Origin: Macrostomum lignano
Taxonomy: Eukaryota
Length of the DNA stretch: 34,455 nucleotides
Assembly: GCA_002269645.1 (NCBI GenBank)
Contig: NIVC01004812.1
Coordinates: 1-34,455 of the forward strand
Reading direction: 5' to 3'
Each line of letters begins with the position of its first letter. Within the stretch, counting starts at the first letter, position 1. The translations under genes were made by a program, and so were the position numbers. The notes beneath the pieces are model-generated. The model searched no databases, had not been told where the DNA came from, and saw nothing but the letters and a program-made list of their open reading frames with translations. Shown one piece after another: positions 13,929-34,455 of this stretch.

Positions 13929-13944
13929 TGACACGCAGACTCAC

Positions 13945-15000: not shown

Positions 15001-15070
15001 AATAGATTATGCATGCATAAATACATAATCAATAGATCGGCCCAGCCCCCAGTATCCCGCTCCGCTCCAC

Positions 15071-15322: not shown

Positions 15323-16174
15323 TGTCTGCAAATAAGTGAGACAGACTACTGGATGAATATTATAAATCAACAGAAAAACCACAAGTGACTTCATTAACAA
15401 CAACAGTCACTGCTGTGTGTAAGGAGCTGCGTGTAAGGGTTAAAAAAATCTAGTACGAAGCGACCTGCTTTATTGTGTTCACCATTACTTGGTAAGTATT
15501 TTTCTAGAGTTTTTAAAAAATCTGCCGATGTCAAGCTCCACAATCAGTAAATTATTTAATTAGCATTAATTGCATGGCGAAAGGGGTCTAAACAAGTCAT
15601 GATTTTTATCCAAGGACCATTGATATTTTAAGCTAGGGTCGTTGCACTATTACATGCATGTTATGTATAGTGTATTATATAATTTTTGTGACAGTTTATT
15701 GTATAAATTCGTGTGCATAGCCTAGAATTGGAAACAATTTATAGTGTTAAATAAATAGAAAGTAAGTTACACATAGTAATAGAAAAGTATAACTAAAAAA
15801 CAGTAAGAAATACAGATAGGCGACAAATTTATGTCTTTTCAAATTGTAGAAAATAATTTTAGTTCTTGGTGTAGCCACAGTTGGAGTAAAGCCGAGAGAA
15901 AATTTGTGGCAGAATGTCCATAGACTTTCGTGCCATGAGAGTCTAAAACACTGCATGACATGAGAAGCCTTGCTGTGAAGTTTCAGGGGTTGATTTGTCT
16001 ATGACCAGACCTCAAAATAGAGAGCTCCAACTGTAACCTCACCAAAAATTAAACAAAAAACCTGAATTTGTCCCCCATTTGTCAAAACAAGAATTCTGGT
16101 GCACCAATCGGTTTTAAAGTAACTCGGATATTATTGCACCTTCAACAGAACTGCTTACAGCACAGTAGCCCATT

Positions 16175-17867
16175 TTACAGATGCCGCGAGCTGTACACCG
16201 TGATGCACCTGAGCAAACGCCGAGCATACTCCGGATGAGTTGCATCCACCTTGAAGCGTTGACTCCACATGTCGCTGAAGTCGCGATGTGCCGACTCCAT
16301 CGCCTGCTCAGACCAAAACCCAAGGCCTCGGCGACACCCATATTGTACTGCCATCGCTTCCAAAAACTGCGGCACGTGGTCAATGAGGGCATGGGCCTTC
16401 GGAGTGATGTTGATGGCCAGAGCGTGGTATGCCGCCTCGAACTCTTTGACTGCTGTATCGTAGCCTTCAAGCAGTTGTTGGCCGAAGCACTTCTGCTGGA
16501 CAGCTCGCAGGCAGCTGAATGCATGGGCGACAGGCACTCCGCTGAAGGCAGCGTGGTCAGCGAGGATCTGGCGCAGGCTGTCGACTCCACCAAGCAGTCG
16601 GTCGCACTCATTGCCATTGAACTGGCTGCCATGATACGGTGAGCGCCGTACGTGAAGAGCCTCAGCCCACTGTGCAGCACGGACTCCGTCGGGACCCAAT
16701 GCTGTCAGGCGCTGCTCAAGCTCGTCGTACAGCCTGTTGACAAGGCCTAGCAGCAGGTGGAGCTCCATGGGTGGCACGGCTTCTAGCGTGTTTGAACTGT
16801 CTGGCCAATTCAGCAGTGGTTGCCTGATGCAGTTGTGGAATGGCTCTCCTGATGGCTTTGAGCTTCGTTGCCCCTCGATGCGCTGATACTGGGCAGCTTG
16901 GCTGCGAATAGAGCCAAAAGTCCGCAATCTGACACTGCGATGGGGATTGGCGAACTCTTTTCGAGGCGTCTCGCACCACGGGCAGGGATGGGCGCTGCTG
17001 GCGCTCTGCAGTCCAAGAAGCACATTTGCAAGTTTCATGTCCACGGAGCTGCAGAAAGACACGTCTTCTAGGTTCAGCAGATTTAGCACAGTTTGCACGT
17101 TCTCATAGTACTCCGGTACTTTTTCAACTGCTGCGATAATTAATAGCTTCTTTACACCACCTTCGGCAAAAGGGCTGCTGCCGGCCTCGGTGACACCGCC
17201 TAGTAGAACAGATGACTGCTCCCCGGACCGGACCAATGTCATGCAAACTTTAAAAAAGCCGCGTCCTCCATCAATACCAATCTTAAGTAGGAAGCTGCCA
17301 GGATCAGGATCCATTCTCCGCCGTGCCAGCACGTAGCCCACCAAGCCAGAGACGTTGGAGCAGAACACAACAGTCCGCGTTTCAAATTCGCCCGTGCTGC
17401 AACGGACTTGGACTGACTCTGTTGCATAAAATGGATCCAACTCGCTATTCAATTCTGCCAGGCGATGCAGGAGGTTTGGCTCGATCGAACTGCGACCCTT
17501 CCACTCACGGAAGAACTGGGCCGCCTGTCTGGTTTGCCGACCACTCAAACCGATCGCATCCTGCATCCTGGCAATCTCACTAGCCGGCACTGATATGTCA
17601 CCACCCGCGGAGCACCTGCTACTCTGAGCGGACACGCTTAGCGTGATTGGGCGGCCTCGAGTTGCCAGCCGAATAGGCGAATCGCCACCTGCGTCTGTTA
17701 ACTTGGCTTTGAGGACGTCACTAGCATGAATTTCTGAACCACGCGGATCACGTGACAGCTCAGAGCAGATGTTATTTAGCCAGCGAGATTGCGTACAGGT
17801 GTGGCTAAGACCCCTGCCAATGGTGGAGTGACATCTCTGGCAGATGGTGATGGGACGAGCAGGTGGC
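16175..17867 (-). mobile_element. Chapaev/Transib-related (CMC) DDE transposase ORF, 5' part cut off by the Polinton
   Basis: Motifs IGIDGG, VDMKL..LLGLQ....HPCPWC, PPMELHLLLG, TPKAH...H, GFWSEQAMESAH. By my translation the frame stays open upstream of 17635 (C..C..H.C cluster CQRCHSTIGRGLSHTC) up to the junction at 17867. Confidence 0.75.
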
Positions 17868-18137
17868 AGTAGTATATAAAAAGACGCTTCTAGACCCAGA
17901 GCACTTTTTTAATGACCGTTTTAAGGGTCTAGAGGGGGGACACGGGGGGTAAATAAAAAAACACATCTAAACACCATTAATACATCTAATCACCCATAAT
18001 CACCCCTAACAATAAAAATCATTCCCAACACTTCCAAACACTCCCCAACACCCCCCTCGCGTCCCCCCTCTTAAGACCTTAAAAACGGCCATTAAAATAA
18101 GGTCTGATCTGTAAGCGTCTTTTTCTATACTACTACT
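17868..18137. repeat. Imperfect inverted repeat at the Polinton left terminus
   Basis: 17868-~17950 (AGTAGTATATAAAAGACGCTT...) pairs with ~18048-18134 (...AAGCGTCTTTTTCTATACTACT), about 80% identity by eye. Confidence 0.85.
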
Positions 18138-18191
18138 CTATAACCCCTTGCCCGCGCCGCAGGCGCGAAGGGTCTTTTTCTGTTACTAAAA

Positions 18192-18506
18192 ATGACCCGA
18201 GTTTACACCTTTTCTGTTAGTGATACTTTTGAGACTGTTGCTAAAAATGCAGAGATAATAAAACAACATATTTTGAATGGAATAATTGATGAAGTTTATT
18301 TAAAATATGACGACAAGCATGACCTAAAGCTTTATCCATTAGAGCTAGATGAGATGTATGATTTAGAACAAGAGGGTGAGTTAATATTTCAACTTGGAGA
18401 TTATTTAAATTCGGATGATTGGGAGGTTAGATCAACAGATTCCGAATCAACAAATAGTTCATATGAAACCAGTGATTCAGAGAATGAAAGTGAAATTTTT
18501 ATGTGA
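18192..18506 (+). CDS. Polinton hypothetical acidic protein (104 aa)
   Basis: AT-rich ORF with the AAAAATG start context typical of the element; no motif recognised. Confidence 0.6.
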   Translation: MTRVYTFSVSDTFETVAKNAEIIKQHILNGIIDEVYLKYDDKHDLKLYPLELDEMYDLEQEGELIFQLGDYLNSDDWEVRSTDSESTNSSYETSDSENESEIFM

Positions 18507-18522
18507 AAAAAATATTTAAAAA

Positions 18523-18747
18523 ATGAACTATTATTCTATAACAGAAACGACGTTTATTATGAAAAATATATATAAAAAAATGAAGGTAAATTATTCCTAC
18601 ATCGGAAATGTTCCAATTAATGAACTTAATGAAAATTTAAGTTTGATAACAGTTGAACAAATGTCAATAATAATATTAGTAACAATAATAGTAATAATAT
18701 TGTTTTTGTTTGTAATAAAAAATTTACTACCATGTTGTCTTAAGTAA
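18523..18747 (+). CDS. Small single-pass membrane protein
   Basis: Hydrophobic IIILVTIIVIILFLFVI followed by KNLLPCCLK; converges on the restored integrase stop. Confidence 0.55.
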   Translation: MNYYSITETTFIMKNIYKKMKVNYSYIGNVPINELNENLSLITVEQMSIIILVTIIVIILFLFVIKNLLPCCLK

Positions 18748-18757
18748 CTGTTTGAAC

Positions 18758-21700
18758 TTAGTTCGCAGACATTATCTGGTTCCAGTGCTGGGCGTTAACT
18801 AGTTAATTGTTTAACTAGTTAATTAACTAGTTAAATTTTTTTTAAAATCGTTAAATTTTCGTTAAATTTTTTATGTATTAACTAGTTAACAAAAATCGTT
18901 AATTTTTTTCTGTAAGTTAAAGTTAAATGACAAAAGTTAATAATTCCGGGAAATGGAGTTCCCCGGGTTCAAAATCCGCGGGTTTCAACAGCTTGTATGC
19001 ATTAAAAAGTAAAATTAATACATACATAAAATAACTTCGCCTTTCTAAGCATTATTTAACGCGTCACAAACTACTATTACATGTATATAATTTCAGTTAC
19101 AAGTTATAATGTATTGAATATTCCGGAAGATTCTGGAATCTTCAACTATTATCTATTGATATTCTACCCAAGGACTACTAGAAGTTATCGTTGTACATAG
19201 GGATGTCGATTCCCCGGGGAATTTTCTTATCGGGGACCCGAGTAATTTACTGTCATTCCCCGGGGACCCCGGGGACTCCGGGGAAAAATAAGTAAAAAAC
19301 GGCGGATAACTTAGATCTTAAGTCACTAAGTGGCAATTCTTAAACTTTGATTAAAGCTTTGGATGGACTACATGTTCAAGGCGCAAGGGTAAAAACTTAA
19401 GGCAATGTTTGTTTAAAACTGTATTTGACAACGTGGCATCACCAAAACGTGCGCGCACCTTTATCAGAAAGGGTCCAGACTCCGGAGGCGGAAAATGCAT
19501 ACTCAGCAGCTGCACTCGAGGGAGGATAATTAATGAATGAGACTGTTTTTATAATCGGAATTTTAATTTCTTGCAGATACATGTAAATCACAATTTTGTC
19601 CTGTCTAATAGGGAGTATTTTGTTATTGTATGACACCCCCCTATGCGTTAGTGACTGACGCAGGATATGGCGCTGTGCCTGCGTCAAATGCGTCAAGCCG
19701 TCAACGCAGACCAACACAATAGTCAGTAAGGCTTCTTTTTCCTGACGGCTTTCTACGCTCGTACGTTCAATTTGCTTGATTGAAAGACTCATAGTGAAAA
19801 AAAACATTCAAACGGGTCGCTAACTTCATAAGACCGAAATTTCACAACGCCGAAAATTCTGCATGCAATACAATCCTTATTGTAAGGTTTTCTACGATGT
19901 GAAATTTCGATCTTATGAAGTTTCGGTCTTGTGAAGTATGGTGTTTCGGCGTTGTGAAATTTCGGTCTTATGAACCCCCCCCCATTCAAACGTGTGTTGT
20001 GTTTGAAATAATACATTGAAATAAGCAGTTTTGCGGTAAAAAAAGCATAGACAGAGTTTCAATCAGCTTTCTGTGAATGATTTTCTTATTTAAATGGCAA
20101 AAATTTAGTTAAAAATGCTTTTTTTCTCCCCGGGGTCCCCGGTCTAATTCCCCGGGGAGTATTCCCCGACAAGCTCCCCGGGGCCCCGGGGAGCCCTCCC
20201 GGGGTCGACATCCCTAGTTGTATACATGTAGTTGTAATTCTGCCTTCCCTGCTGCGCTGCTCCGCGTCGCGCTGCATAGATATTTCCTTGTCGCGTTGCA
20301 CCATTCTGCGCCATGTCGCGCCGCCGCGCGACTTCCCGCGCCGCCGAACGACCTCCTGCGCTGCGTCGCGCCACCGCGGCGCGCCGCGCCGCACCGCGAC
20401 CTGGCCACAGCCGCGCCGCGCCGACCTGAAATTTAAAAAACGCGCCGGACGCATGTCCGGGAAAATGTCACTTTTTCCGTTAGAGAATTATTAACTTTAA
20501 CTTTTAACTTTTCAGAAGTTAAATTTTGGGCAAAAGTTCAATAATTAACTAGTTACAGTTAATTTTTTTGGAGCAATTAAATTAACTTTTTAACTTTTAA
20601 CGAGTTAAAAAAATTGATTAACTTGCCCAGCACTGTCTGGTTCTCATAAAAAGAACCCAATATTTCTTCACCATCCTTATCAGCAATTATATAGGTTGTA
20701 GGATTTGTATTTAAAACTTTACTGATGGTAAATTTCTCACTTATTTTCCAATATCCTTTTCTTCCCTTTTCAAACTTATCTTTCCATTTATAGATATAAA
20801 CAGAATCACCAACCTTAAAACCTTTAGTTTTCTTTTTTTCAAAATCTCCAAAAGTAACCCTAACATTTTCAGGATTGTTATAAGCTTGTTGAGGAGTCAT
20901 CTTTATCGCCGAATGATATGAATTGTTATAATCTTTCACTACGTCTGGTAATATTTTTACCCATTTTTGGTTACCATTAAGACTAAACTGAAACCATAAT
21001 TTCTTACCTAAAGTTCTATTAAATCTTTCTATTAATGCGTTTTTACTCTCTCCATAAATAGAATAAATTTTATTAATATACTCCCCATTCGCGTCCTTTT
21101 TCCTTTCTTGTCCTTTTTCAAAATGGTACAATTTATACATGTGAGGATTGTAAAATTCTTTTCCTTCGTCAACACACAACCTTTCACTTTTTTCTCCAAG
21201 ACTTCTAAAAGCAGCAGCAACCTCCTTTCCCTTTTTGGATTTTAAAGGAACAGCCCACGCGTATCGAGTAAAACCATCTAATATGGTTAAGATATATTTA
21301 TATCCTCTTTCGTTCGGCATCGACATTAAATCAGCATACCAAATTTCATTCTTTTTGAAGTTCATGATTTTTCTATAAAATTTAGGTTTTCGATATTCTT
21401 TATGAAGAATCTTTGCCTCATCAGAACTTAACCCGCCGCCACTTAACAACAAACACTCAACACAATTATTTCCATGTTGATTATAATTAATTCCCAAACC
21501 AAATTTAACTTTAGACTGCAAGATCTTTTTAACCATCCACCTAGTTAATTTTTGACCTACCGATAATCCCTGCAAGTTATCTAATCCTTGAATCATTTTT
21601 TGATCGGCTTCATGTTTTAATCTTAATGCTTCCTCGGGTGTGTTCTTATCAGCATCTCTGTATGCTAAGTCATGATAGTATGCTAACCAATCAATTCCAT

Positions 21701-22226
21701 TTATGGGAATTGAATCGGCTTTTGGGGTGTCATCAGGATTTAATCTCAAATCTAAGCGAGTGCCGGGTAGTTTACCCTCAATCTTTCGAAAGAGGCTGGA
21801 GCACACCTTAAGCGGCGATAATTACCGCCCATCTCCGTCTGCTCTCTGAACCTTCTCCTTATATTTAAAATACTTAGGAGCTTGGCTGCGCATTGCCACC
21901 GTGTCTTCAAGCTTTTTACCATCGAACCATAGGTTCGCGGACGAAGTCCGATTGGGAAGAGGAGTTACCTCTGTTCCTTCAAAAGATTTCTCAATTGAAG
22001 TGGTACTTGAAGCTGTATGACGGGTTTCACGCAATTTGGAGATGTCGCCACAAATAGTGACTAGCAAGGACATTGCCTTCCTCACTCAGGCCACGGGTTA
22101 ACCTGTGAAGTTCATTGATGGTAGGTGTAGCTCACCCGTATACCTCCCAGTAGTAAATATTGGTGGTAAGCTTGTTAATCCTTTTTGAACATCTAAAAAT
22201 CCTCCTTCAAATACTATTTGGTTCAT
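18758..22226 (-). CDS. PLA2-like domain fused to retroviral-type (rve) integrase; split by a group I intron and by a hAT insertion (exons 22226-22101, 21767-20636, 18774-18758; 424 aa restored)
   Basis: ELHLPSMNFTG^PGTRL...PINGIDWLAYYHDLAY...HEADQKM...KVKFGLG is a parvovirus VP1u-like PLA2. Integrase motifs IWYADL (D), ILDGFTRYAW, VDEGKEF (D), IERFNRTL (E). Removing the hAT restores GSFYENQIMSAN*. Confidence 0.85.
19198..20216 (-). mobile_element. Second hAT-derived element nested in the first, with a remnant of the hAT dimerization domain
   Basis: TIR TAGGGATGTCGA / TCGACATCCCTA; 8-bp TSD GTTGTACA/GTTGTATA (7/8); CCCCGGGG subterminal repeats; PPSSAAAEYAFSASG (~19439-19528, -) resembles the hATC PASSA.SER.FS..G motif. 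Confidence 0.8.
19814..19982. mobile_element. 169-bp MITE (MULE-like) nested in the second hAT
   Basis: 9-bp TSD CATTCAAAC (19805-19813, 19983-19991); perfect 31-bp inverted repeat 19825-19855 / 19944-19974. Confidence 0.85.
21768..22100 (-). ncRNA. Group I self-splicing intron (IC1-like, with P5abc), 333 nt, no internal ORF
   Basis: P1 exon CAGGU / GCCUG with U-G at the splice site; P3 CAUCUCC (22044-22038) / GGAGAUG (21836-21830); P4 UGCGU/GCGCA; P6 GCC/GGU; P6a CUCCU/AGGAG; P7 GAGAGCA (21846-21840) / UGCUCC (21803-21798); core P AAAUUGCG, Q AAUGCGCAGCC, R UCAGAGAGCA, S AAGGUGUGCUC; P8 GGCG/CGCC; P9 with GAAA loop; P9.0 AG/CU; removal restores the frame and the PLA2 motif. Confidence 0.92.
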
Positions 22227-22734
22227 TTTTAATGTTTAAAAAACATGTTTCTATCAATTTAATAATTTCTAAATATTGGTCACCATATAAAAAATTTAAA
22301 GCAAATTCCCCAGTTAACAAGGTAACTCCATTATCAAATACTTTTTGTACGGGGTTTTTAGTAGTATTATTAATGCAAATATAATATAAATCAAATTCGG
22401 GATTAACATATTTAAATTCTAATAACTTTTGAATATTTCTAAATCGACTTGATGAATTATCTGTGTTATCAGAAGATTTTAACTCTAACGCAACTTTTCT
22501 TTCTGTATGAATTAAATCAATTTTATTTACTTTTTCAAAACCAAAATGTTTAATAGCTAATAATTCATAAAGAGATCCAAGTCTCATTTGTATTGTTTTA
22601 ATACGGTTTGCAATTATTAATTCATCTTGAAATATTTTATTTAGTATTCTGTCAGAACCAACTTTATCATAAATAGGCTTACAAAGGTGGTCTTTTATTG
22701 TTTCATCCATTTTATAAAAAAATAAATTTAACAA
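22207..22734 (-). CDS. PD-(D/E)xK nuclease-like protein (type II restriction endonuclease-like)
   Basis: E...IDLIHTERKVALELK...NTDNS pattern recalls Eco47II-like enzymes of large DNA viruses; likely start MDETIKD at ~22710; overlaps the PLA2 start by 20 nt. Confidence 0.55.
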   Translation of the reverse strand: MLNLFFYKMDETIKDHLCKPIYDKVGSDRILNKIFQDELIIANRIKTIQMRLGSLYELLAIKHFGFEKVNKIDLIHTERKVALELKSSDNTDNSSSRFRNIQKLLEFKYVNPEFDLYYICINNTTKNPVQKVFDNGVTLLTGEFALNFLYGDQYLEIIKLIETCFLNIKNEPNSI

Positions 22735-22738
22735 TTAA

Positions 22739-23410
22739 TTAAACTCCAGTATGTCCAGCAGCTTTCGCAGCAGCCAAAACAAGTTCTCGCGGTGTTTTAA
22801 ATCCATCACCAACAGCTGGTTTGTTATTTATAGAATTAACAATCCATTTATACAAGCTGGTATTTTTAACAGCTCCTCCTAACTCATCATAAAAAATTCT
22901 AGCACTTATTGATTTATCCCTAGTATATAAATCGGGGTTAAATTTTACCCTAGGGTTCGTAATAATATTAAATGCTCCGCCCAATTCTCTATATAGTTCA
23001 TTTCGATCTTTAACAACGTTACCAATTCGATAATTACCACCACCTAAATCTGTCACAGCAATACTAGTTGGTGCAGGTCTCGGATATTGTTCAACTCCAC
23101 CCCTAATCTCTTCACGTCTAATTTCTGCAACTCTAAATATTGCTTGATCAGTCTCATAAGCAGGCGGCTCATCCAAAATTTCATCCTCTTTTGGCTCCGT
23201 ATTTTTAGCAATTTTTTCCAGAAGATCTTTATCTGTTTTTTCTAGTTCACTAATTTTCCCAGTAATAGGATTAACAAAAGGAGCAGCAAATCTTTCGCCA
23301 GCTAATTGTATTCCTAACTTTCTTTTTTGTAAATTTCTAACAAAATCAGAATATCTTTGCTTCTCTTTATAAATCGCTAACTCTCCATCAACGTCCATAA
23401 ATTGACTCAT
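22739..23410 (-). CDS. Polinton hypothetical protein (223 aa), possible virion core precursor
   Basis: Intact ORF with AAAAAATG start; several xxGG motifs. Confidence 0.6.
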   Translation of the reverse strand: MSQFMDVDGELAIYKEKQRYSDFVRNLQKRKLGIQLAGERFAAPFVNPITGKISELEKTDKDLLEKIAKNTEPKEDEILDEPPAYETDQAIFRVAEIRREEIRGGVEQYPRPAPTSIAVTDLGGGNYRIGNVVKDRNELYRELGGAFNIITNPRVKFNPDLYTRDKSISARIFYDELGGAVKNTSLYKWIVNSINNKPAVGDGFKTPRELVLAAAKAAGHTGV

Positions 23411-23444
23411 TTTTTAACATAAAAAACTTTTTTAACTTAAAAAA

Positions 23445-24917
23445 ATGGCTGAAACAAAAACTATGTGGAGTGATAAATTTCATTTCAAAAAGCACCGACA
23501 GTATATTAATGAGGTCAGAGCAAGAGATTTAAATTATACCCTACCAACAAGTGATAATTCAAATAACTTTACTACTGGAACGGTAACTTTTGACATCGGC
23601 GCAACCAACACTATATTGGATATGAAAAATGCGTTTTTCCGCGTTAGATGGTTGTATACTAGAAATGATGGAACTGCTCTTGCAGCCGGAGATATCGCAG
23701 ATCGATCCGGAATAATAATAGAAAATGATTGGTTTTATAAATGTTTTTCCCAAGCTCAACTAACTGTTAATGGTGCTGAGGTTGAGACATCATCAAACCC
23801 CGCAGAGATTAATGGAGTTTTGAAACATTTAAATTATACTTATTTATCAAAACAAGTTGGTGATAATGTTGGGTGGATGCCGGATAAAGGTAACGGTCAA
23901 GCAGTAGTTTTCCCTAATGTACAAAACGCAGCTGGTGCAGATACTGCAGCTCTAATTGCTTACCTTAATACAAACATAGTTCCAGTTGTAACCACTATGA
24001 CTAATACAAAAGATATTAACACCGGCTTTATAGATCGTCAGAAAAAATTCCCAGTTGCAGTTTTAACCACGGCAACGGCATATGAGCAGGACTTTTCAAT
24101 CTTCCCGCTATTTGGGTTCTTCTCACCAAATCGGGTATGGAAAGGATTAAAATTTGGGATACAGTTGCAAATATCTGGTGGATATCAGCCTAGGATACTT
24201 TATGGAACCTCAATTTCAACCGATATAGCAGTTCGTATAGATTCAATTCAATTAGTCGTACCAACTATTGAGGTAACAGCCCCACTTTTAAAACACATCG
24301 ATAATCAGTTAACGCATGATCAGGAAATATTTTATTTGAATCGTCGACATTTTATGCGAACCATTAATAATAACCAGGATTCATTCCAGTGGCAAATACT
24401 GACATCAAAACGTCGGGTGAGATATATTTTTGTTTGGTTTAAGATAACAAATAGAAGGAGTAAAAGAGCAAATGGGGATTTATATTGGCTTCAATCCGGT
24501 GCCATAGCAGAACAAGCAGCCACCGCAACAGACAATGCGGCTGCAGCTATTAACGAGTTTAATGTTCAGAATATCCGCCTGCAGGTTGATGATCAATATT
24601 ATCCGGTTAAAGACCCCCTAAATTTAAATATAGCAAATAATAATGTTAATGATTTTATAAAATATTATCAAGATTATGCTAAAAATGAAGCGTATGCCGT
24701 CCCTCAGTACACACCCACAGAGTTTCTAAACATTCATCCAGTGGTTGTTTATGATCTAACGGCACAGAAAGAAAACGTAGCCAATATTGGACTTAATTAT
24801 ATGTTAGAGATTAATAAAACCGGTAATCAGGCACTTGACGCCCACGTATTGTTTCTAGAGGAATATATGTCAATTGCTAAAGCTGATGGCACGATTGTTC
24901 GGGACGCGCCACTTTAG
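23445..24917 (+). CDS. Major capsid protein (double jelly-roll, Polinton PY)
   Basis: FSQAQLTVNGAEVE, RYIFVWFK, NVQNIRLQVDDQYYP..PLNL, PVVVYDLTAQKE match Polinton MCP patterns; 490 aa, intact. Confidence 0.85.
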   Translation: MAETKTMWSDKFHFKKHRQYINEVRARDLNYTLPTSDNSNNFTTGTVTFDIGATNTILDMKNAFFRVRWLYTRNDGTALAAGDIADRSGIIIENDWFYKCFSQAQLTVNGAEVETSSNPAEINGVLKHLNYTYLSKQVGDNVGWMPDKGNGQAVVFPNVQNAAGADTAALIAYLNTNIVPVVTTMTNTKDINTGFIDRQKKFPVAVLTTATAYEQDFSIFPLFGFFSPNRVWKGLKFGIQLQISGGYQPRILYGTSISTDIAVRIDSIQLVVPTIEVTAPLLKHIDNQLTHDQEIFYLNRRHFMRTINNNQDSFQWQILTSKRRVRYIFVWFKITNRRSKRANGDLYWLQSGAIAEQAATATDNAAAAINEFNVQNIRLQVDDQYYPVKDPLNLNIANNNVNDFIKYYQDYAKNEAYAVPQYTPTEFLNIHPVVVYDLTAQKENVANIGLNYMLEINKTGNQALDAHVLFLEEYMSIAKADGTIVRDAPL

Positions 24918-25000
24918 TGTCGCAGTGCAAAGCACGTCGCCCCCGCTGTAAGCGGTGCAGGTCTCCGACCGTCGCGCCTATTTAAATTATTTCTTTAAAA

Positions 25001-25755
25001 ATGGTAAAGGCAAAACACGATAAGATATTTCCAAATGATCCTTTTCTTTGTTTAGTAATCGGAGGATCAGGTAAAGGAAAAACACACTTTGTTTACGATT
25101 TATTAACAACAGATGGAATGTTAGACTATAATAATTTAATAATTTATACTAACAAACCTAGAAAAAATATTATGAATTTCTTAAACATGGATTAAAAAAC
25201 AAATTAAAAAAAGATGTCTTGTTTAGAATGTTAGGAGCATATGAGCAATATGAGGATGATGACGAACCGCGATTTACACTCGATGACATTGAGGATTTAT
25301 GTAAAACAATGGCACAACAACCAGAAAACATCACCGAACGAGCCCCAACTGTTAGAGTATCAACCCGATTAGCCTATGATCAAATTCCAAAACATGATAA
25401 AACACTAATTATTTTTGATGATTGTATTAATGACGGTGATCAAGAATTGCAAAAGGAAATTTTTGTTAGTGGTAGAGGAGATGGAATTGGAGCTTTTTAT
25501 CTAACACAGTCCTTTAGAGAATTAGAATCGATTATAAAAAAGAATGCAAGTTGTTGTGTAATGTTTGATTTAGATAATTATGATTTACAAAATATACACG
25601 CTAGATTTAATCCTGGGTTGGATACAAAACAATTTAAAAGCTTGTGTAAAAAAATTTGGGATGATAGCCAATACAAACATATATATATCAACCCAAGGTT
25701 AGAAAGGAAAAATCGAATCTTAAAAGATCTGATGAAAGAGGACGATGAGGATTAA
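25001..25755 (+). CDS. FtsK/A32-like packaging ATPase, one frameshift near 25155-25165
   Basis: Walker A GGSGKGKT, Walker B LIIFDD, SGR...IGAFYLTQS; the two ORFs join via EKYYEFLKHGLKNK in the second frame. Confidence 0.88.
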
Positions 25756-25770
25756 TTTCCCACTATAAAA

Positions 25771-26556
25771 ATGACTACAAATTTAAATACTATAAAACAA
25801 TTGGTAGATCGAACTAATTCAAAATTTAGTACAACCTTACAGTTTATAATGACAACCAGTGAACAACGTATTCAATTGCGCGACCCGTTACAACTTGATC
25901 AAAGCCTAAGTTATCAAATAGGTTTGATACTATTTTCGGTTTTTAACATGCCTCAATTAATTAATGCAACAAATAATCAATTTAGATATTCTAAAGATTC
26001 CGGAGCCAATTGGACAACATTTAGCGTTAACCCAGGAGCGTATTCCTATACCGATTTGAATGCTTATATAGAAGGAGAATTAACAACTAATGGAGATTGG
26101 GTATCAGGCGCAATTGTTATAGGGGTTGATTTACCATCTGGCAGATTCACACTATCACTAGGATCCGGATATCAGGTTGATTTCACAATTGCAAATTCAC
26201 TCAGAACCATACTCGGATTTAATTCCCGAATCGTTACCACATCAAGCACCGGCGATACTGTTGGAAATATTGAGGGTGGTGTTAATACAATTAATATTAC
26301 AACCGACATATCAAACGGCGGTTATATAACAGATAATAATGGAGTTTTGGTTCAACGTGGAATTATTTATTCAATCCCATTTCTTGCTGTTCCAATTGGA
26401 GAGAAAATGATTGTTTCACCCCAAACCCCAATATATTATCCTTTAAATCAATATAGTGTTCAATCAATTTATATTAGGATTGTAGATGAAAGCGATAGAT
26501 TAATAAGTTTTGGTGGGCAGTCAATAACAATAATTTTACGTATAAAACAGGTTTAA
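25771..26556 (+). CDS. Minor capsid protein (penton, single jelly-roll; PX)
   Basis: beta-rich; INITTDISNGGY...GIIYS....P.GEK..V.P..PIYYPL....VQSIYIRIVDESDRLISFGGQSITIILRIK is typical of Polinton mCP. Confidence 0.8.
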   Translation: MTTNLNTIKQLVDRTNSKFSTTLQFIMTTSEQRIQLRDPLQLDQSLSYQIGLILFSVFNMPQLINATNNQFRYSKDSGANWTTFSVNPGAYSYTDLNAYIEGELTTNGDWVSGAIVIGVDLPSGRFTLSLGSGYQVDFTIANSLRTILGFNSRIVTTSSTGDTVGNIEGGVNTINITTDISNGGYITDNNGVLVQRGIIYSIPFLAVPIGEKMIVSPQTPIYYPLNQYSVQSIYIRIVDESDRLISFGGQSITIILRIKQV

Positions 26557-26566
26557 TATTGTAAAA

Positions 26567-26737
26567 ATGGGTAACAATAGTTTAAAAAAACAAACGGAAA
26601 AAGTTCAAAATGCAAAGGATAATTATGAAATCGAACTAACAAAATTGAAACAACTGCAAGCAGAAAAAATCCGAAAGGAACTGTTAAAATCCAAACCAAC
26701 GAAACTAACCAAAACCAAGAGTTTTTCAGGAACATAA
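26567..26737 (+). CDS. Small basic protein (56 aa, MGNNSLKKQ...), below the ORF-track cutoff
   Basis: AAAAATGG start; fills the penton-protease gap exactly; Lys-rich. Confidence 0.5.
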   Translation: MGNNSLKKQTEKVQNAKDNYEIELTKLKQLQAEKIRKELLKSKPTKLTKTKSFSGT

Positions 26738-26738
26738 A

Positions 26739-27176
26739 ATGACTATGAATTGGCAGTTGTTCAAACAAAGATATGGAACAGACACAACAAGCAATATTGA
26801 ATTAACAAATTGGGCGCGACAACTAAAAATAAAACCATTCAGATGTGTTATGCGAGATGAGATCAAAGACTTACCACAATATGGATCTTTCATTGTTAAT
26901 ATTGAAACAACAAAAGAAAACGGGGTTCATTGGTCAGCAGTTTATTCAAAACCTAAACTTGTTTATTTTTTTGATTCATACGCGCTTCCTCCGTTACAGG
27001 AAATAAAAGATAAATTTAATCATACTAAAAATCGTTTATGTGGAGATCATCATGAACAATTTCAAACATTTGACAAAAGTTATTGCGGGCAAGCGGCGTT
27101 GTATTTTTTATATAAAATTAATAACTCTAAGGAAAGACCCGAAGCATTTAAAGCAATTTTAGATTCTATAAAATAG
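26739..27176 (+). CDS. Adenain-like cysteine maturation protease
   Basis: GVHWSAV (His), YFFDSY (Asp), QTFDKSYCG (Gln, Cys). Confidence 0.9.
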   Translation: MTMNWQLFKQRYGTDTTSNIELTNWARQLKIKPFRCVMRDEIKDLPQYGSFIVNIETTKENGVHWSAVYSKPKLVYFFDSYALPPLQEIKDKFNHTKNRLCGDHHEQFQTFDKSYCGQAALYFLYKINNSKERPEAFKAILDSIK

Positions 27177-27186
27177 ACAGTAAAAA

Positions 27187-29232
27187 ATGTTATTTTCTGG
27201 AACACCCTCATGGAACGGAACAACAAGTACTGGTGGAGGCGCATCTGGTGGAATAAGTGTTACATTCGGAGATAACCGATATATTAATGAAGATGAAGGT
27301 TATAAAAAAACTGAAATTGATAATAAACTAAATTTGAAACGGAATGTTGCAGATTCCTATACCAAAACTCAAATAGATGATTCATTAAATTTAAAACGCA
27401 ATACAGCCGATTCTTATACCAAAACCGAAGTTGATAATTCCCTAAATTTAAAACGGAATGTTGCCGATTCTTATACCAAAACTGAAGTTGATAATTCCCT
27501 AAATTTAAAAAGAAATATAACTGATTCTTATACCAAAACTGAAGTTGATAATTCCCTAAATTTAAAAAGAAATATAACTGATTCTTATACCAAAACTGAG
27601 GTTGATAATTCATTAAATTTAAAACGGAATGTTGCAGATTCTTATACCAAAACCGAAGTTGATAATTCCCTAAATTTAAAAAGAGATATAACTGATTCTT
27701 ATACCAAAACTGAGGTTGATAATTCCCTAAATTTAAAACGGAATGTTGCCGATTCTTATACCAAAACCGAAGTTGATAATTTAGTTGGAGGTGGAGCCCC
27801 AAAACAGGATCGATTCCAAACGGTTGAAACCGGACACGTACCAACTATGGCAGCTTGGAGTGGAAATGGTTTTGCAATATCCGCAAGCACAGCATTTAAT
27901 ACAACCGATTTTGCAAGTTGGAAAGCGTTTGATGGTAATGATTCAACAGATTGGGCAACAAATAATACTCAAACTGATTATTGGATTCAAGTCCAATGTC
28001 CATCCGCGATAATGTGTTATAAAATTGATTTACGTGGGAGACCATCACCATCAACCGAACACCCAGCATCATGGCGATTTGAGGGCAGTAATGACAATAC
28101 GAGCTGGGATGTTTTAATACCGGCTGGCAGTTCTGTAGAAATAAATAACTCAACTCAAACAATTAATGTCACACAAAATTTTGATAAAACATATTCATAT
28201 TTCAGATTGTTCTGTCTTACATCAACATCGGGTTCTACCAACCCCGGCTTATCAACTTTTCAGATTTATAGACAGACTTTTACAATTCTTGATTTAAATT
28301 TGGGAGTTGTTAATCAATCAATTGATATGGGTGGTAACACAATTACTAACATATCTACTATAAACAATAACAGTTCTGTTGTTACTAAAGGTTATGTTGA
28401 TACGCGAGTAACCCAAACGGCAGATGGCCGAATGTCTTTTAACGATAAAATAAAATTGGATGGCATACCGGCAATTGATGCCGCTTTGTACGAACCCGTA
28501 ATTTGCAATTGGACTGGGTATCAAAATCCAACCACTGCCGGCGATATTTTTCCAACAGGAAGTTTCGTTGGCGACGCTTCTTATATCGATTATCAAAATG
28601 GAGCTAGAATTACTCGTGAAACCTCAGGTGTAAGTGGTGCTTTACAATTTAATTTCACCCATTTTCGTAATATATCCGCCTCCTTCTATTTCCGAGTTGC
28701 TAATGCTACAGGAGATGGTGCTGACGCTGTTTGGTTTTATGCATACTGTCATGAACGACCAACAAGTGAATTTGGAACTGGATTAACAACCGACGCCGGC
28801 TTGATAGTGTTTGCGAGTGAATGGCATGACAGAGTTGGGGTTCTTTGGAGTAATAAAAAATCAGACGGAGCAACAGTTCGTAATGATGTTCTTAATGACG
28901 CCGATCAAACGATAACTTATGCAAATATTGATAATGGCGATTGGCATTTATTTGAAATTAATATTTTAAATCAAAGAGTTTGGTATCAATTAAGATCATA
29001 CAATGTTTCAACCAAAGTTTATACACTAATTGGGCAAAACTTTTTTACATATGATAGCGGAACTTGGGGAGAGTTGGATAAAACAGGAACTCTTATGGGG
29101 TTTGGTGCTCGAACTGGAGGATCGGATGCTGCACATTTTATTCGTGGTGCCGCCGTTTGTGGTAGCACATCAGCAGGCTATGATTTTGCTGCGACCGCAT
29201 ATTTGGAACAACCACCCACACAGATCAGCTAA
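27187..29232 (+). CDS. Fibre/receptor-binding protein: 19-aa YTKTEVD repeat stalk, discoidin (F5/8C)-like domain and lectin-like domain
   Basis: ~8.5 x 57-bp repeats (27301-27780); KAFDG...W...YWIQV...W.FEGSND...W...YSYFRL; VVTKGYVD; GDGADAVWF...GDWH...GFGARTGG. Confidence 0.75.
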   Translation: MLFSGTPSWNGTTSTGGGASGGISVTFGDNRYINEDEGYKKTEIDNKLNLKRNVADSYTKTQIDDSLNLKRNTADSYTKTEVDNSLNLKRNVADSYTKTEVDNSLNLKRNITDSYTKTEVDNSLNLKRNITDSYTKTEVDNSLNLKRNVADSYTKTEVDNSLNLKRDITDSYTKTEVDNSLNLKRNVADSYTKTEVDNLVGGGAPKQDRFQTVETGHVPTMAAWSGNGFAISASTAFNTTDFASWKAFDGNDSTDWATNNTQTDYWIQVQCPSAIMCYKIDLRGRPSPSTEHPASWRFEGSNDNTSWDVLIPAGSSVEINNSTQTINVTQNFDKTYSYFRLFCLTSTSGSTNPGLSTFQIYRQTFTILDLNLGVVNQSIDMGGNTITNISTINNNSSVVTKGYVDTRVTQTADGRMSFNDKIKLDGIPAIDAALYEPVICNWTGYQNPTTAGDIFPTGSFVGDASYIDYQNGARITRETSGVSGALQFNFTHFRNISASFYFRVANATGDGADAVWFYAYCHERPTSEFGTGLTTDAGLIVFASEWHDRVGVLWSNKKSDGATVRNDVLNDADQTITYANIDNGDWHLFEINILNQRVWYQLRSYNVSTKVYTLIGQNFFTYDSGTWGELDKTGTLMGFGARTGGSDAAHFIRGAAVCGSTSAGYDFAATAYLEQPPTQIS

Positions 29233-29302
29233 TGCTGCGACCCTACGGGGCGATCGCCTAAGGCGCGGACTTCGTCCGATCAGTTAAATATTTCTATATA
29301 AA

Positions 29303-29629
29303 ATGGCTTTTAGTAGAACTCCATCGATGCGGCAAAATAATGTTATTATTCCTATTCCTAAACAAGAATCAAATATAAAAACATTCAAATCTCATACCAA
29401 ATTTTTATTTAGTACTGTAAATGTTCAGGATAATAAGAAGCTTCAAGAATTAATTAAGTTATTAAAAAATCATATTATACTTCAAGAGTTTTGGAAAATA
29501 GGATTTAAATGGGAGAAAAAAGAAAGAATCACTCCAATACAATACCTATTGAGCTCGGGACAAATCCCCAAAGAGCGCGGGGAATTCATTTTGGTGCTAT
29601 TAAAAATAGACGAGAATGTCGGTATCTGA
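29303..29629 (+). CDS. Polinton hypothetical protein (108 aa)
   Basis: Intact ORF with TAAAATGG start; overlaps the next gene. Confidence 0.55.
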   Translation: MAFSRTPSMRQNNVIIPIPKQESNIKTFKSHTKFLFSTVNVQDNKKLQELIKLLKNHIILQEFWKIGFKWEKKERITPIQYLLSSGQIPKERGEFILVLLKIDENVGI

Positions 29630-30272
29630 AGCAGATAAATGGGAACGCGACCGGTTCAACCAACGTAAAGGTCAGATGTTAAGTAATGTTGATCGTATTA
29701 ACTATGATTATGATTTATATACTAAAAAAGTAAGAAGAGTTTCAAACCATATAAGAAATATGGACTTTTTCAATATTGGATTTGGAAGCTTATCAATGTT
29801 ATGTGTAATCGTTTTAGGTATTTTACAATCTATTCCAACTCTTAATTTATCTCAATTATTTTTAGGTATTTCAATTGGCTCAATATCAGGTTTTGAATTG
29901 ATCAGAAACTTATCAATACTTTTAGCAATTAAATTATATCTTAAAAAAAGAAAGGAAAAATATAAATCATTAAGAGATGTTGCCAAGCAATATAAAAATC
30001 AGTTATATTTATATGTGCAAAAAATATTGGATGACGGAGAGATAACGATTCATGAATTATCAACCGCGGTTGAGTTATATGAAAAATATTTAAAAGATAG
30101 AAATAGAATTTTAGATGTTGAAACTTTTACCGATATGGAATTAAAAGAGTTGAGACTCGATAAACCCAAAGCTCCACCGATAGAAACATTAGGCATTTAC
30201 GAACCTGAAACTATTGCTACTGGGGCACAAAGCCCGCGGTCAGGAAGTGCGGTAGAACTTCAGGTTGTTTAG
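29616..30272 (+). CDS. Two-TM protein of a type common in Polintons
   Basis: Two hydrophobic segments followed by KKRKEKYKSL and KILDDGEITIHE pattern. Confidence 0.65.
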   Translation: MSVSEADKWERDRFNQRKGQMLSNVDRINYDYDLYTKKVRRVSNHIRNMDFFNIGFGSLSMLCVIVLGILQSIPTLNLSQLFLGISIGSISGFELIRNLSILLAIKLYLKKRKEKYKSLRDVAKQYKNQLYLYVQKILDDGEITIHELSTAVELYEKYLKDRNRILDVETFTDMELKELRLDKPKAPPIETLGIYEPETIATGAQSPRSGSAVELQVV

Positions 30273-30752
30273 TTTTTCTAATGCATATGTTATATATTCT
30301 TCCCAAAGTGGTAACTCTCTTCTGATCCTAGGTTTAAATTTTTTATCAATACATAAAAATTCCAATGACTTTTTCAGTAACATTTCGTTAGGTATGTTAC
30401 CTATCCTTATAAACTTTGTATTCTCTCGAATAAGAAAATTGAAATAATATCCAACTAAAATTAAAATCCTTTCGGAGTCTTTCGAACTTAATCCCTTTCC
30501 TTTATTTAAATGGAAAAAGTTATTATATAAATAAACATTATTTCCGGGAATTAAAATTGGATCAGAAATGTCTCTTGTAAGATTTCTTAAAATTGTATTT
30601 TTAAAATAGTAATATGAGTTTTCAATCTTTTTTGTTTTTTCAAATTGATATATTTTAGAACATGAATAACACATATGATATATATCTCCGTTTGCTGTTT
30701 GCCCTCTGTGCATAGTCACATTACATTTATTACATTCGTAAATGTCTTTCAT
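30240..30752 (-). CDS. Hypothetical protein with N-terminal Zn ribbon
   Basis: CNKC...CYSC; AAAAAATG start. Confidence 0.6.
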   Translation of the reverse strand: MKDIYECNKCNVTMHRGQTANGDIYHMCYSCSKIYQFEKTKKIENSYYYFKNTILRNLTRDISDPILIPGNNVYLYNNFFHLNKGKGLSSKDSERILILVGYYFNFLIRENTKFIRIGNIPNEMLLKKSLEFLCIDKKFKPRIRRELPLWEEYITYALEKLNNLKFYRTS

Positions 30753-30778
30753 TTTTTTGTTATTTTTTTAGATTAAAA

Positions 30779-31111
30779 ATGGAGAGCTGGTTCAAAACCG
30801 ATTCTAATGTGATTAATTATCTCACACCCAATATGTTGGAGAATAAAGAATATAATATTATATGTTTGAGACAGGTTAAATTTATTGGGCTTCAATCAAT
30901 ATTTTTACAATTAGATGGGCAAAAAATTTTATGTCTAAGCGGAGATGATGTTAAAAATTTTCCTGTTTTAGTTATTAATAAACCTAAAGCGTTTGTTATG
31001 AAATACTGCAACGAGGGTGGATTGCAATTTAAACTAAAACAAACAAATAATAAAAAGAGTGATAGGACTGTAAAATTGGCGGCTGTTTGGGAGGATGACG
31101 ACGAAGACTAA
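30779..31111 (+). CDS. Polinton hypothetical protein (110 aa)
   Basis: TAAAAATGG start, acidic tail. Confidence 0.55.
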   Translation: MESWFKTDSNVINYLTPNMLENKEYNIICLRQVKFIGLQSIFLQLDGQKILCLSGDDVKNFPVLVINKPKAFVMKYCNEGGLQFKLKQTNNKKSDRTVKLAAVWEDDDED

Positions 31112-31126
31112 ATTTTTTATAAGAAA

Positions 31127-31375
31127 ATGGATACGATAAAAATCCTTATCACTAAAGAGCGTGAACTTAATGATATTAATAAAAAAATAAATATAATTAT
31201 ATCTCAGAAATATCATGAGTATGGGGACGATATGTTTCCCATCCGATATGAAATGGATAAAAGAAAACGTTTTATTAAATCTGCAATTGCTTATGCTGAA
31301 ACAGTAATTGAAATCGAAATAGATAGGTTGGTTAGAAAAATAAAAAAACTTAGGAAAAAAATAAAGATTGTTTAA
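31127..31375 (+). CDS. Small coiled-coil/basic protein (82 aa)
   Basis: GAAAATGG start; K/I-rich helical sequence. Confidence 0.5.
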   Translation: MDTIKILITKERELNDINKKINIIISQKYHEYGDDMFPIRYEMDKRKRFIKSAIAYAETVIEIEIDRLVRKIKKLRKKIKIV

Positions 31376-31491
31376 GTTACCCTGACGACTGCGAGGAAAA
31401 TTGGCCTTCAATATTATATGAAATCGAAATGGATATTATGCTTAAACAATTACATGCTTTAGTTTTTTTCCGCCCCGAAGGGTCGCGGATT

Positions 31492-31740
31492 TTATCCGAT
31501 AAGTAATTTTTCTGTTAATCTCTTCCAGTTATTCAAGACTTTTTCCTTATTTAATTTTTTAAGTTCTTTTGGAAATGTTGAATAATAATTATCTATATCT
31601 TTTTCATATTCTAGAAATGTATTATATTCACAATCACATTCGGATTCACAATCACAATCGTAATAATAATTATTTATTGCCGCTTTGTATTCATTATATT
31701 TACTTATTATATCTTCTTTTTGTTTTTTATCTTTTATCAT
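31492..31740 (-). CDS. Small hypothetical protein (82 aa, CDCESECDCE)
   Basis: ATGA overlap with the PolB stop. Confidence 0.5.
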   Translation of the reverse strand: MIKDKKQKEDIISKYNEYKAAINNYYYDCDCESECDCEYNTFLEYEKDIDNYYSTFPKELKKLNKEKVLNNWKRLTEKLLIG

Positions 31741-34455
31741 ATTTTTATCTCTTCTTTTAAACCAAATGGATATGTTTTAATTTTATCATCTAAATATCTT
31801 TTATCATCAAATGGACTTAATGTTTTTTTATCTGTCTCGATGACAAACATCTGATGCTTATCTGAATTTAATCGATATTGTGGAGCATGATAATTTTCAA
31901 TTGTATTAAGGTAATCTAAAAGTACGTTTTTATAATCATCAAATGTTATCTTTTTAACTGCTGCCCTTGATACCCCTTTTATTTTTTTTACCTCTCCCTC
32001 CTGTCCTAAAACTTTAAATGCATAGCATTTGATCTTATTGCTATAAACTCGGTTATGATTTTGCTATTTAATTCATCTTTCATTTTAAGTACAACTTTTT
32101 TATTTTGATCTGATTTTAAAGGATGGTTATCCGGATAGTCGGAGGTATCCAATGTATCCTTAATTTTTTCCATATCTTTATAGACATCGAACCTTTGGTT
32201 CGCGGGCTTTGCCCGATCCTCTGTTTCAACCTTAAATACCAAACTGTCGGTGTCTGCATATATTGGATAGTTATCTGGCCATGTTTTATTTATAACATCA
32301 TAATAATATTCATACATTACCAGCTTTGCATAATCTAAAACAACCATTCCAATAAATATTGGTTTAAGAAATTTTGTTGTTTTATTTCTCATATGAATAC
32401 CCATAAAGTTATCATCAAATTTTATAAAGTCTTTAAAGTTAGGTTTTGAGAAATATTTCTTTGCTTTATCAATATCCTTTTCTAAATGGAATTGGGTTCT
32501 ATCTCTAATATTTTCAACCGTTTTTCCATAAAAAGCATTATTCATTAATTTCCAATAATCTTTCTCAAAATTTGTTTTTGACATCTGTCTCTGATTTGAA
32601 TTAAAATCAATATATTTAGCTAACCAATCTTCCTCAATAAACGATATTGTTCGATGTACTTTAGACACTTTTAATCCCTGCTTTTCATAAAATTGTAGAA
32701 GCTTATAATGCACTACATAGTTTTTCTTATCATGTAAATTTAATATTAATTTTTTGTTGCTAGATGTTTTGCATTATCTACTTTAAGATAATCTTTTTGT
32801 GTTTGTGATAAATCATCTTCATTAACTGAACAATGCTCTGGAGCTAAAGGATATTTATATGTTTTTGCTTTTGCTTCCCGAGTATATTGCAAATCCACCT
32901 CTACAATACAGCCCCTTCCTTCGGGAATATTTTTGTAATAATCGGGGTCATCTTCCCATTGGAAATCAGCTATTGGTAATTTTTGTTTCATACAACCACC
33001 GTATAAATTGTTTGCATCTAGATATAATACATATGATGATTTTTCTTTTTTATTATAATTTGGTAAGATATTTATTATTTACTTTAGTATATCTATCTCC
33101 TAGTACACCCGAGAATCCGCCGCGAATTCCTCTCTCAATCATTAACAACATATCATGATCAGTTAGTAAATCAATCTTAACATCTGTATGTTTCAAACCA
33201 CAAGCCCATGTTAATCCCGGTGCACTGAAACAATATGCGGGATCAATTTTAAAATTCTCATATGTATGATTCCTAAAGTTTTCAAATGCATCAGCTAATA
33301 GGAGAACATCTGCTTTAAGATATAGATTATGATAATCTTTAAATGTTTTACAATTAAAGTATTTCCATACTTTTTGAGCGTGTTCATAATCCGATTCACT
33401 TATATTTGATTGTGATAATGTGGAATAAAACTTTTCTATGGGCGGTAATTCGGTATGAAAAAATACGTCTTCAGATGTTACATATTCATATGGATAGATG
33501 CCCTTACGAGTTAATAGCATTAGTTCTTCCTCGGATAGTTTTTCTTTTTTGAAACGATTCAATAGTATTGGAAAGTTTTTCTTTACTATTTCTAAATCCC
33601 ATGGTTTGGAACTAATGATGAAACAACATTTGCAAAGATGTTGATAAGAATCTCAAGGAATCTAGAAAAACTAGATGGGAGTATTTCTTACCATATGTTA
33701 TTGATATGTAATTTTCTGATGTTTTAGGTAATATATTTATTTCATATTCATCCTTTCCTAAATGAAGCAATTCTCGAACTAAGAAATGAAAATCATATCC
33801 GGAACCATTATGAAAAAATACTGGTATTTCCTTACATCCTTTTCCTTCTTTGCATTACATGATCTACATGCTGCCCCTCGATAATTTCCTGTTAGATGAC
33901 AATGTTCTCGTATCTTATTATTCTTACTTAAATGTCTTTTGCACATAAAACAATTTGTTGCATTTTTATAATTGTCTCTATCCTTATTTGTCATATTAAT
34001 ATTTTTTGATAATTTATCATATTGATTTTGAATATATTCAAATACATTTACTAATGATTCTGCCATGTGCTTAGCTGCATCATTACCGTGGTAAGTAATC
34101 ATCCTTGATTTAAATATATGATCAGCTACAGAGTGTACATATATACAATAACTATCGGAAACTGTTGTGCCAATTTTTTTTGTGCATTCGTCCCGTAGGG
34201 TCGCGTGCTTTGCACGATCCCCATCATCAGATGCCGTCTGTGATTCTTTTAAGGGAACATTTGTTGCTTCAAAATCAGCATATATTACTATTGGTTTTTT
34301 AACTGCCATATAATGTTGTTGGAACTTTAGGGTTTGCATCTTCAGATGCTGGCATTATAGCATTAGTAAATTTGTGATCTAAACAAAATCGTTGGTGGTT
34401 TTAAGAGCTGTTTCATCCTTTTTTAAATGTAAAACAATTTCTACATAGTGGATAT
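31737..34455 (-). pseudogene. polB: Protein-primed family B DNA polymerase with endonuclease VII-like insert; about 10 single-base frameshifts; 5' end outside window
   Basis: ExoI PIVIYADFE; EHCHLTGNYRGAACRSCN; FHNGSGYDFH; GIYPYEY; YLKADVLLLADAFENFR; YLDANNLYG; KLMNNAFYGK; YADTDS; LSPFDDKRY. Confidence 0.92.

Follow-up and report, generated by a model that had tools for sequence, protein, structure and literature searches.

The window analyzed here, the whole 34,455-nucleotide contig NIVC01004812.1 of Macrostomum lignano (assembly GCA_002269645.1), contains from position 17868 onwards a copy of a Polinton/Maverick, an endogenous virus that carries 28-bp elements composed of two adjacent GC-rich hairpins. 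These hairpin elements are real and mobile in the evolutionary sense, with sites that are filled in some sister copies of the virus and empty in others. We consider it probable (about 0.6) that they represent a non-autonomous DNA micro-element, which is copied among Polintons that recombine, through template switching guided by microhomology or through break repair.

A strict scan of the window for two abutting stems, each with a 3-nt loop, returned exactly five matches, at 21923-21950, 29255-29278, 31471-31498, 32188-32215 and 34189-34216. All five adjacent double hairpins of the original prediction, which was made from the sequence alone, are thereby recovered at their places, and far above the level of 100 dinucleotide shuffles of the segment from 18701 to the end (mean 0.19 matches, maximum 2). 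A grammar-based recount found 5 in the Polinton and 0 in the host DNA of positions 1-17869. DNA folding prediction yields two hairpins for all five on both strands, the first hairpin at 31471 adopting a slightly shifted register on one strand. Two details of the prediction stand only in part. The AT flanks are present on both sides in three of the five units, but TT is found on the left at 34189 and TC at 31471. The copy assigned to 29253-29280 is indeed a double hairpin, but it measures only 24 bp and constitutes the second half of an array starting at 29226 (Table 1).

The 764-Mb assembly, in which Polintons reside on nuclear contigs, contains dozens of sister copies of this Polinton with 82-100% identity (the best 31-40 of 181-349 candidates were scored in each search; counts refer to loci, and a few contigs occur in more than one locus). 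A total of 36 solo sites, in addition to arrays, and 54 distinct 28-mers were found over loci L001-L170. The site at 21923 is filled in 14 of 27 loci, with two different second hairpins, and empty in 13, which read TT (12) or AT (1). At 34189, where 16 of 26 loci are filled, an exact 30-bp presence/absence is observed, together with a variant in which the unit is displaced by 3 bases and has AC on both sides. The array at 29226 occurs in empty, partial and rearranged forms among 25 loci, and the cluster at the end of the capsid gene (24906) is present in 28 of 29 loci, is 31-87 bases long and has exchanged modules. The PolB site at 32188 is filled in all 30 sister loci, with several second-hairpin variants and a doubling to +60 in three of them; no empty allele was found among these 30 loci. 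Empty-site alleles, by which the original prediction was to be judged, are thus present at 21923, 34189 and many sites of sister copies. Gaps of 30 bases at 21923 and 25339, and of 35-38 in total over the 34189 region, are also present in short-read contigs from three other runs, so that the presence/absence is not an effect of assembly. An assembly artefact or chance hairpins, for which the many single-base indels of the assembly might be invoked, can hardly be entertained given these gaps and pattern controls at 0. Identical 28-mers are found at unrelated flanks, one of them at four, and have therefore been copied.

Two of the units lie in frame within PolB. The peptides RAKPANQRFD and RAKHATLRD, which they had been predicted to add, are confirmed in the PolB frames, and 28 bp plus AT adds 10 residues and so keeps the frame. 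The distance from the DTDS motif to the next conserved motif is 35 residues in the PolB of the window, against 25 or 26 in 93 of 96 measurable homologues and 27-29 in the remaining three (120 were compared, 14 of them without the motif and 10 unmeasurable, one of the latter with an insert of 10 residues in this loop that is unrelated). Distant PolBs lack the insert peptide, which is not ordinary conserved protein sequence. In a structural model of PolB (mean pLDDT 79), the 10-residue insert falls within a loop of lower confidence that connects a strand with a helix. The frame is kept in 25 of 26 alleles inside genes compared with 28 of 43 located in intergenic DNA or at the ends of genes (Fisher p 0.003), alleles that are not independent and from which rows with flanks unmapped within 60 bases were dropped. 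Moving two rows labelled mCP, which are intergenic array pieces, gives 23 of 24 against 30 of 45 (p 0.006). The genes with filled alleles include those of PolB, integrase, ATPase and protease and several small ones, and the major capsid gene has them close to its start; about half of the insertion sites are held by genes.

The unit consists of a 15-bp hairpin abutting a 13-bp hairpin in inverted orientation, each of the form CG...CG, and its insertion usually adds 30 bases, AT included. Units occur in both orientations. Twelve stems of the 15-bp and nine of the 13-bp hairpin are combined in 23 ways. Their middle positions show compensatory pairs, with four different standard pairs at one of them; the outer CG pairs are fixed by the search pattern and hence uninformative. 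Together with 17 different loop triplets, this supports the covariation of stems with variable loops that had been noted in the original prediction. A mismatch is retained in one common stem. G-T pairs are so few (only one at each of two positions among 21 distinct stems) that there is no RNA-like wobble pattern. The loops are purine-N-A or its complement in 14 of 17 triplets, the 15-mer bearing mostly purine-N-A (36 vs 14) and the 13-mer mostly the complement (45 vs 9), so that each strand tends to begin with a stable loop. The d(GNA) triloops are described as giving very stable DNA hairpins (PMC3201870), and the RNA counterpart of the mini-hairpin is reported to melt far lower (PMC13037366). 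The loops being of this DNA type, and the RNA counterpart less stable, a constraint at the DNA level is suggested. A lone hairpin of the same grammar lies within the terminal inverted repeat, at both Polinton ends; in C273 and C1391 a covarying version is present, followed by a 13-bp module. This hairpin may be the source of the 15-bp module, or a place that the family invaded.

Across the genome, a degenerate pattern gave 376 matches and its reversed control 0. A looser pattern without stem constraint, which fixes only the CG, AT and loop-closing bases, gave 294 against 0, and all 100 of the matches listed from it proved on inspection to be hairpin pairs. The 55 distinct contexts inspected (the first 30 listed matches and 22 further stretches, mostly picked as likely outliers) all touch Polinton DNA, 47 on both sides and 8 on one side. 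The genome-wide search that had been proposed thus finds an excess far over chance and, among the inspected contexts, nothing in host DNA. Because all the inspected copies lie in Polinton DNA, the virus's own replication or recombination is indicated as the motor, which reduces the candidate enzymes to a handful. In public viral contigs the strict pattern had 0 matches and the loose pattern 46, of which one has no more than a single stem mismatch and none is close to genes of a Polinton; no related Polinton locus was found there. Among at least 120 matches in metagenomes, 19 had at most one mismatch against a chance expectation of 12.5%; all lie in GC-rich DNA and none is near Polinton genes. 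We read the viral and metagenome matches as chance level; as neither collection contains animal genomes, they do not show absence. Separately, a stranded 180-base PolB fragment lies beside a simple repeat in host DNA (L118 / L138:4998-5180) and ends inside a hairpin array, with the break within a unit.

The borders were analyzed at 27 solo sites with a close empty allele, 9 of the 36 being excluded for lack of one. An exact 2-bp duplication, mostly of AT, is present at 14 sites; five match on one side, the non-matching side being usually AT, and eight match on neither, two of which (21923 and 25339) also have a rarer AT allele. The duplication of AT anticipated for single-AT empty sites holds for most of the 14, but in some cases the AT is borne by the element and is no transposon footprint. 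G precedes the left dinucleotide at 17 of 36 solo sites and C follows the right one at 14 of 36, whereas the background next to AT within the Polinton is 18% (p 7e-5 and 3e-3), a bias that resembles the CGATCG junction of arrays. Two classes of element were rejected. A Helitron-like blunt insertion between A and T is at odds with the AC...AC sites. A miniature inverted-repeat or other class II transposon would have terminal inverted repeats and an invariant target duplication, but the ends here have only CG...CG in common and the duplication varies.

Arrays of up to 118 bases are joined by AT, which produces the CGATCG junctions, and include three-hairpin and chimeric forms; one form of 41 bases has a chimeric hairpin, as expected of a deletion between two similar modules. 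Arrays are located at gene ends at 25755, 26558, 27174 and 29226, and those found at 25755 and 26558 in sister copies are missing from the copy in the window. At single sites modules have been exchanged, and loops occur in both orientations (AAA/TTT, GAA/TTC). The Polinton copies are mosaics in which all four gametes are found for 38-57% of pairs of single-nucleotide polymorphisms (SNPs) less than 100 bases apart, and at 34189 and 21923 the unit is nearly unlinked to the nearest SNPs, 4 and 2 only.

The location of the arrays raises the question of whether the hairpins are working viral cis-signals (transcript 3' ends, pausing or an origin) under selection, of which the in-frame copies would be a spill-over. 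The clustering at gene ends, the retention in the terminal repeat of a hairpin with this grammar, the capsid-end cluster in nearly all loci, and the use of mini-hairpins by phage origins and promoters (PMC13037366) are in keeping with such a role. We nevertheless regard it as unlikely, as almost all sites have empty alleles among near-identical copies, the window does without two of the arrays, both orientations occur, about half of the sites are intragenic, and gene ends are the sole free space in a compact genome. Of the micro-parasite or single-stranded DNA signal envisaged in the original prediction, the micro-parasite is well supported. A signal that serves the virus is not, given that most sites are filled in some copies and empty in others.

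Strand-displacement replication by protein-primed polymerases is established for adenovirus and phi29. If it also operates in Polintons, as we infer, it would supply single strands and explain the Polinton context. In the favored scenario of template switching or break repair, the unit encodes no enzyme and would be selfish non-coding DNA. Copying of the Polinton by strand displacement would leave single strands bare, in which the mini-hairpins could fold. A nascent or broken 3' end in (G)AT would pair with the CGAT border of an existing unit or array, copy 28 bases plus AT, and return to its own template, guided by 2-6 bases of likeness. The filled site might then be spread, swapped or removed via short-tract conversion between copies, and viral selection would retain 30-base units in protein loops and any length between genes.

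Several observations weigh against this scenario. At site 25339 the unit is linked to the near SNPs (r2 0.64, 6 SNPs), as in plain inheritance, and the low linkage at the two other sites comes from the few SNPs given above. The length of the insertion is very precise, and the clean 2-bp duplication at about half of the sites, with AC...AC at three positions, is explained equally well by a staggered cut. The flank bias may be the site preference of a nuclease, and the AT-only allele may represent a precise loss rather than the state before insertion. No excised or intermediate form was found among the copies, and the context was read for 55 of the 376 genomic matches.

Units are also borne by a second Polinton family, 66-70% alike to that of the window, so that they are not confined to one family, a point that the original prediction had proposed to check. 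The second family carries them within its group I intron, which occupies the same place in both families (Rfam 61-89 bits; L110, L140, L123, L116). One of its units arrived with a recent recombination patch between the families, as judged from the sequence of a stretch of about 110 bases of the intron P5 extension (21900-22010, unit included) that is about 90% alike to L110 and L140. The other, flanked by AT on either side, was inserted at a position where L110 and L140 are empty. No doublet was found in about 9.5 kb of the second family's other genes. Under one reading, 23 of 24 copies end the intron with A instead of the usual G; the Rfam end lies 9 bases earlier at a G and is also in frame. 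A peptide search of loci L001-L170 detected no intron-less allele. Section 16 of PMC12220804 names introns of this kind only for the Polinton-like viruses of a small number of protist groups. The 3' half of the intron (21762-21952) is unaligned in L041 and L042, and L041 has no Rfam match; this is possibly a different or decayed intron.

The two unit places in the intron, and the crossing to the second family with the intron patch, would be accounted for by an RNA-mediated spread, through retroposition or carriage by the intron, and an RNA route has been proposed for the elements of Allomyces (PMC2800124). This explanation is very improbable here. The triloops are of the DNA type, no wobble pattern or A-tails are seen, both orientations occur, and carriage by the intron covers 2 sites, not 36.

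Nucleases encoded close to the intron are relevant to the main alternative, in which the unit is moved or seeded by an enzyme of the Polinton. The endonuclease VII-like domain of PolB, an Eco47II-like or HNH nuclease, or the integrase would make a 2-base staggered cut at (G)AT(C), followed by ligation of a unit that an array has released, or by repair from a filled copy. The Eco47II-like nuclease has nine homologues with 51-63% identity. It is encoded by a free-standing gene upstream of exon 1 in the family of the window, where an HNH-type gene occupies the slot instead in about half of the sister copies, and inside the intron in the second family (L140:2346-2822, L110, L123:3123-3488), a placement that, by analogy, is like that of an intron homing endonuclease. 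HNH domains of Polinton PolBs are already known (PMC10748475). The exact duplications, of AC as well as AT, the endonuclease VII domain, the alternation of nuclease genes beside the intron and their presence inside it in the second family are all consistent with a cut of this kind. Moreover, the purine-N-A loop on the 5' hairpin of either strand confers a two-fold symmetry that would suit a dimeric enzyme, and an involvement of intron endonucleases has been suggested for the GC clusters of yeast (PMC4478555). Yet 13 of the 27 sites are not clean duplications, and chimeric modules, inverted loops and three-hairpin forms require recombination anyway. The second family possesses the nuclease, but within the stretches read its units are only in the intron, and Pfam scans of 30 open reading frames revealed no HUH transposase. 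We therefore hold enzymatic cutting to be a possible but rather doubtful origin; it is compatible with template copying, and the two are not mutually exclusive.

With microhomology-guided copying retained as the preferred reading, we put forward a more specific version of it only tentatively. The element may be a hyperparasite specific to an animal DNA virus: 30 bases born from the terminal-repeat hairpin, spread only by protein-primed, strand-displacing replication (perhaps with the PolB endonuclease VII), and selected in length for the reading frame. It would colonize polymerase, integrase, ATPase and protease genes and cross between families on a group I intron.

The carrier itself was characterized by Pfam scans of the open reading frames. 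Animal-type exons in bases 1-17867 of the window identify this part as host DNA. Among the proteins that the Polinton encodes are an A32-like ATPase, an integrase that has a phospholipase-A2-like domain, and a PolB containing an endonuclease VII domain; the scores of PolB and integrase are slightly under the cut-offs and that of the ATPase is weak, and the capsid and protease genes are named by gene order and resemblance, without a family match. A protein-primed PolB, a retroviral-type integrase, the A32-like ATPase and terminal inverted repeats with AGT ends are the markers that place it among the Polintons. The endonuclease VII domain (E 3e-6) has His and Asn at the expected positions, residues whose roles in this domain we assume. 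The closest PolB relatives are 50-56% identical, part of them annotated in bivalves, and some homologues (P0044, P0051, P0055) have intein/LAGLIDADG domains in precomputed Pfam annotation. In the window copy, PolB (31737-34455, minus strand) is disrupted by several frameshifts. The 3' end of its integrase gene is disrupted by a transposon that is absent from the aligned sister copies and is presumably hAT-like, judged by the length of its target duplication.

Other features of the window stand apart from the hairpins. The terminal repeat at 17868-18134 is an imperfect inverted repeat, whose first 80 bases return inverted about 190 bases in, 81% alike; the lone 15-bp hairpin comes after it. The gene for the 681-residue protein, the most variable among the Polinton copies, contains about ten 57-base tandem repeats (19 amino acids) at 27243-27812 and an F5/8 type C domain. 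The host DNA (1-17869) has exons that encode a CPEB ZZ domain (6334-6762) and carbonic anhydrase (11278-11631). It also includes GA-rich repeats, a tandem array of 33-base units (12933-14057) and an open reading frame of 463 amino acids without annotation (16175-17566, minus strand).

Table 1. Positions of the hairpin elements, empty sites and neighboring features in the window.
Positions	Strand	Feature	Remarks
17868..34455		Polinton/Maverick copy hosting the hairpin elements	AGTAGT end at 17868; other end cut by contig end
18153..18167		Lone 15-bp hairpin of the same grammar, within terminal inverted repeat	At both Polinton ends
18590..18591		Empty AT site	In-frame unit present in sister copies
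18783-20635		Unrelated non-autonomous transposon, 1.85 kb	Short terminal inverted repeats; 8-bp target duplication
21768..22100	-	Group I intron in phospholipase-A2-like part of integrase gene	3' end 21768 or 21777
21921..21952		28-bp double hairpin, AT both sides	P5 extension of group I intron (Rfam RF00028, 61 bits)
22207..22710	-	Eco47II-like nuclease reading frame, candidate helper	E 4e-4, below Pfam cut-off
24906..24970		Degenerate, older hairpin cluster, end of major capsid gene	One shared 13-bp core
25337..25338		Empty site in packaging ATPase gene	Filled in frame in 23/42 loci (site 25339)
29226..29280		Four-hairpin array, end of 681-amino-acid gene	First TAA loop is stop codon of upstream 681-amino-acid gene
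29659..29660		Empty AC site	Sister copies filled in frame, AC both sides
31416..31417		Empty AT site	Filled in L024, L029, L121, L135
31471..31500		28-bp double hairpin, intergenic	TC on the left, AT on the right
32186..32217		In-frame PolB insertion of 28-bp double hairpin plus AT, directly after DTDS motif (+10 amino acids)	
34189..34218		In-frame PolB insertion of 28-bp double hairpin plus AT, near first exonuclease motif	

For the double-hairpin elements (DHEs) and GC clusters of mitochondria, the means by which hairpins of 30-50 bases move without an enzyme of their own is a long-standing question. As one assembly offers copies by the hundred, including arrays, chimeras and both filled and empty alleles, the mechanism becomes unusually testable here. 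The insertions also map loops that tolerate 10 extra residues in the PolB, ATPase, protease and integrase of Polintons, and the mosaic copies reveal an exchange of short DNA tracts among integrated animal Polintons, both inside a family and from one family to another. In the literature, with subscription journals largely not covered, we found no report of such hairpin elements in Polintons.

Comparison with known systems places the unit among several families of short palindromes. The Rickettsia palindromic elements insert in frame into surface loops of proteins, and the likeness drawn in the original prediction is justified in this respect; it is otherwise loose, as those elements are bacterial and several times longer. 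The cyanobacterial SDR5 is a tiny repeat that inserts precisely at a CGATCG-containing site (PMC4390886), which the targets and junctions found here resemble in part; it is described from a bacterial chromosome with a fixed octamer target (HIP1), whereas the target here is mostly AT. REPINs share the inverted palindrome doublet, the lack of autonomy and the clustering, but are described as extragenic, longer and tied to a RAYT transposase (PMC3116915). Pfam scans of 21 + 9 open reading frames detected no RAYT transposase, the rest of the genome not having been searched for one.

The GC clusters of yeast mitochondria (GC42) are short GC-rich palindromic units with 2-3-base direct repeats on their flanks; their presence varies among close relatives, and no enzyme is known for them (PMC4478555). 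They share with the present elements the GC-rich palindromes in AT-rich DNA, presence/absence, conserved stems, and the merger and shuffling of units, a likeness drawn from their description. They differ in being mitochondrial, with 42 bases and AG or ACT repeats (PMC4478555), while the units here have 28 bases, AT or AC and two triloops, and reside in a nuclear endogenous virus. A direct repeat on both sides, with a single copy at the empty site, is seen here at 14 of 27 sites, five of the others being one-sided and eight neither. The DHEs of Allomyces and Schizosaccharomyces mitochondria likewise consist of two adjacent GC-rich hairpins, are conserved in shape and are presumed mobile. As described, they lie in intergenic DNA and RNA genes, mostly outside protein genes (PMC10085805, PMC2800124), in contrast to the roughly half of sites within genes here. 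Those of Allomyces are described without flank duplication (PMC2800124), unlike the exact duplications of the present elements, which are not mitochondrial. The likeness to mitochondrial DHEs and GC clusters proposed in the original prediction thus extends to the way they work but, given location and flank rule, not to membership. The hairpin elements are a known class of element in a new setting, the Polintons of an animal genome.

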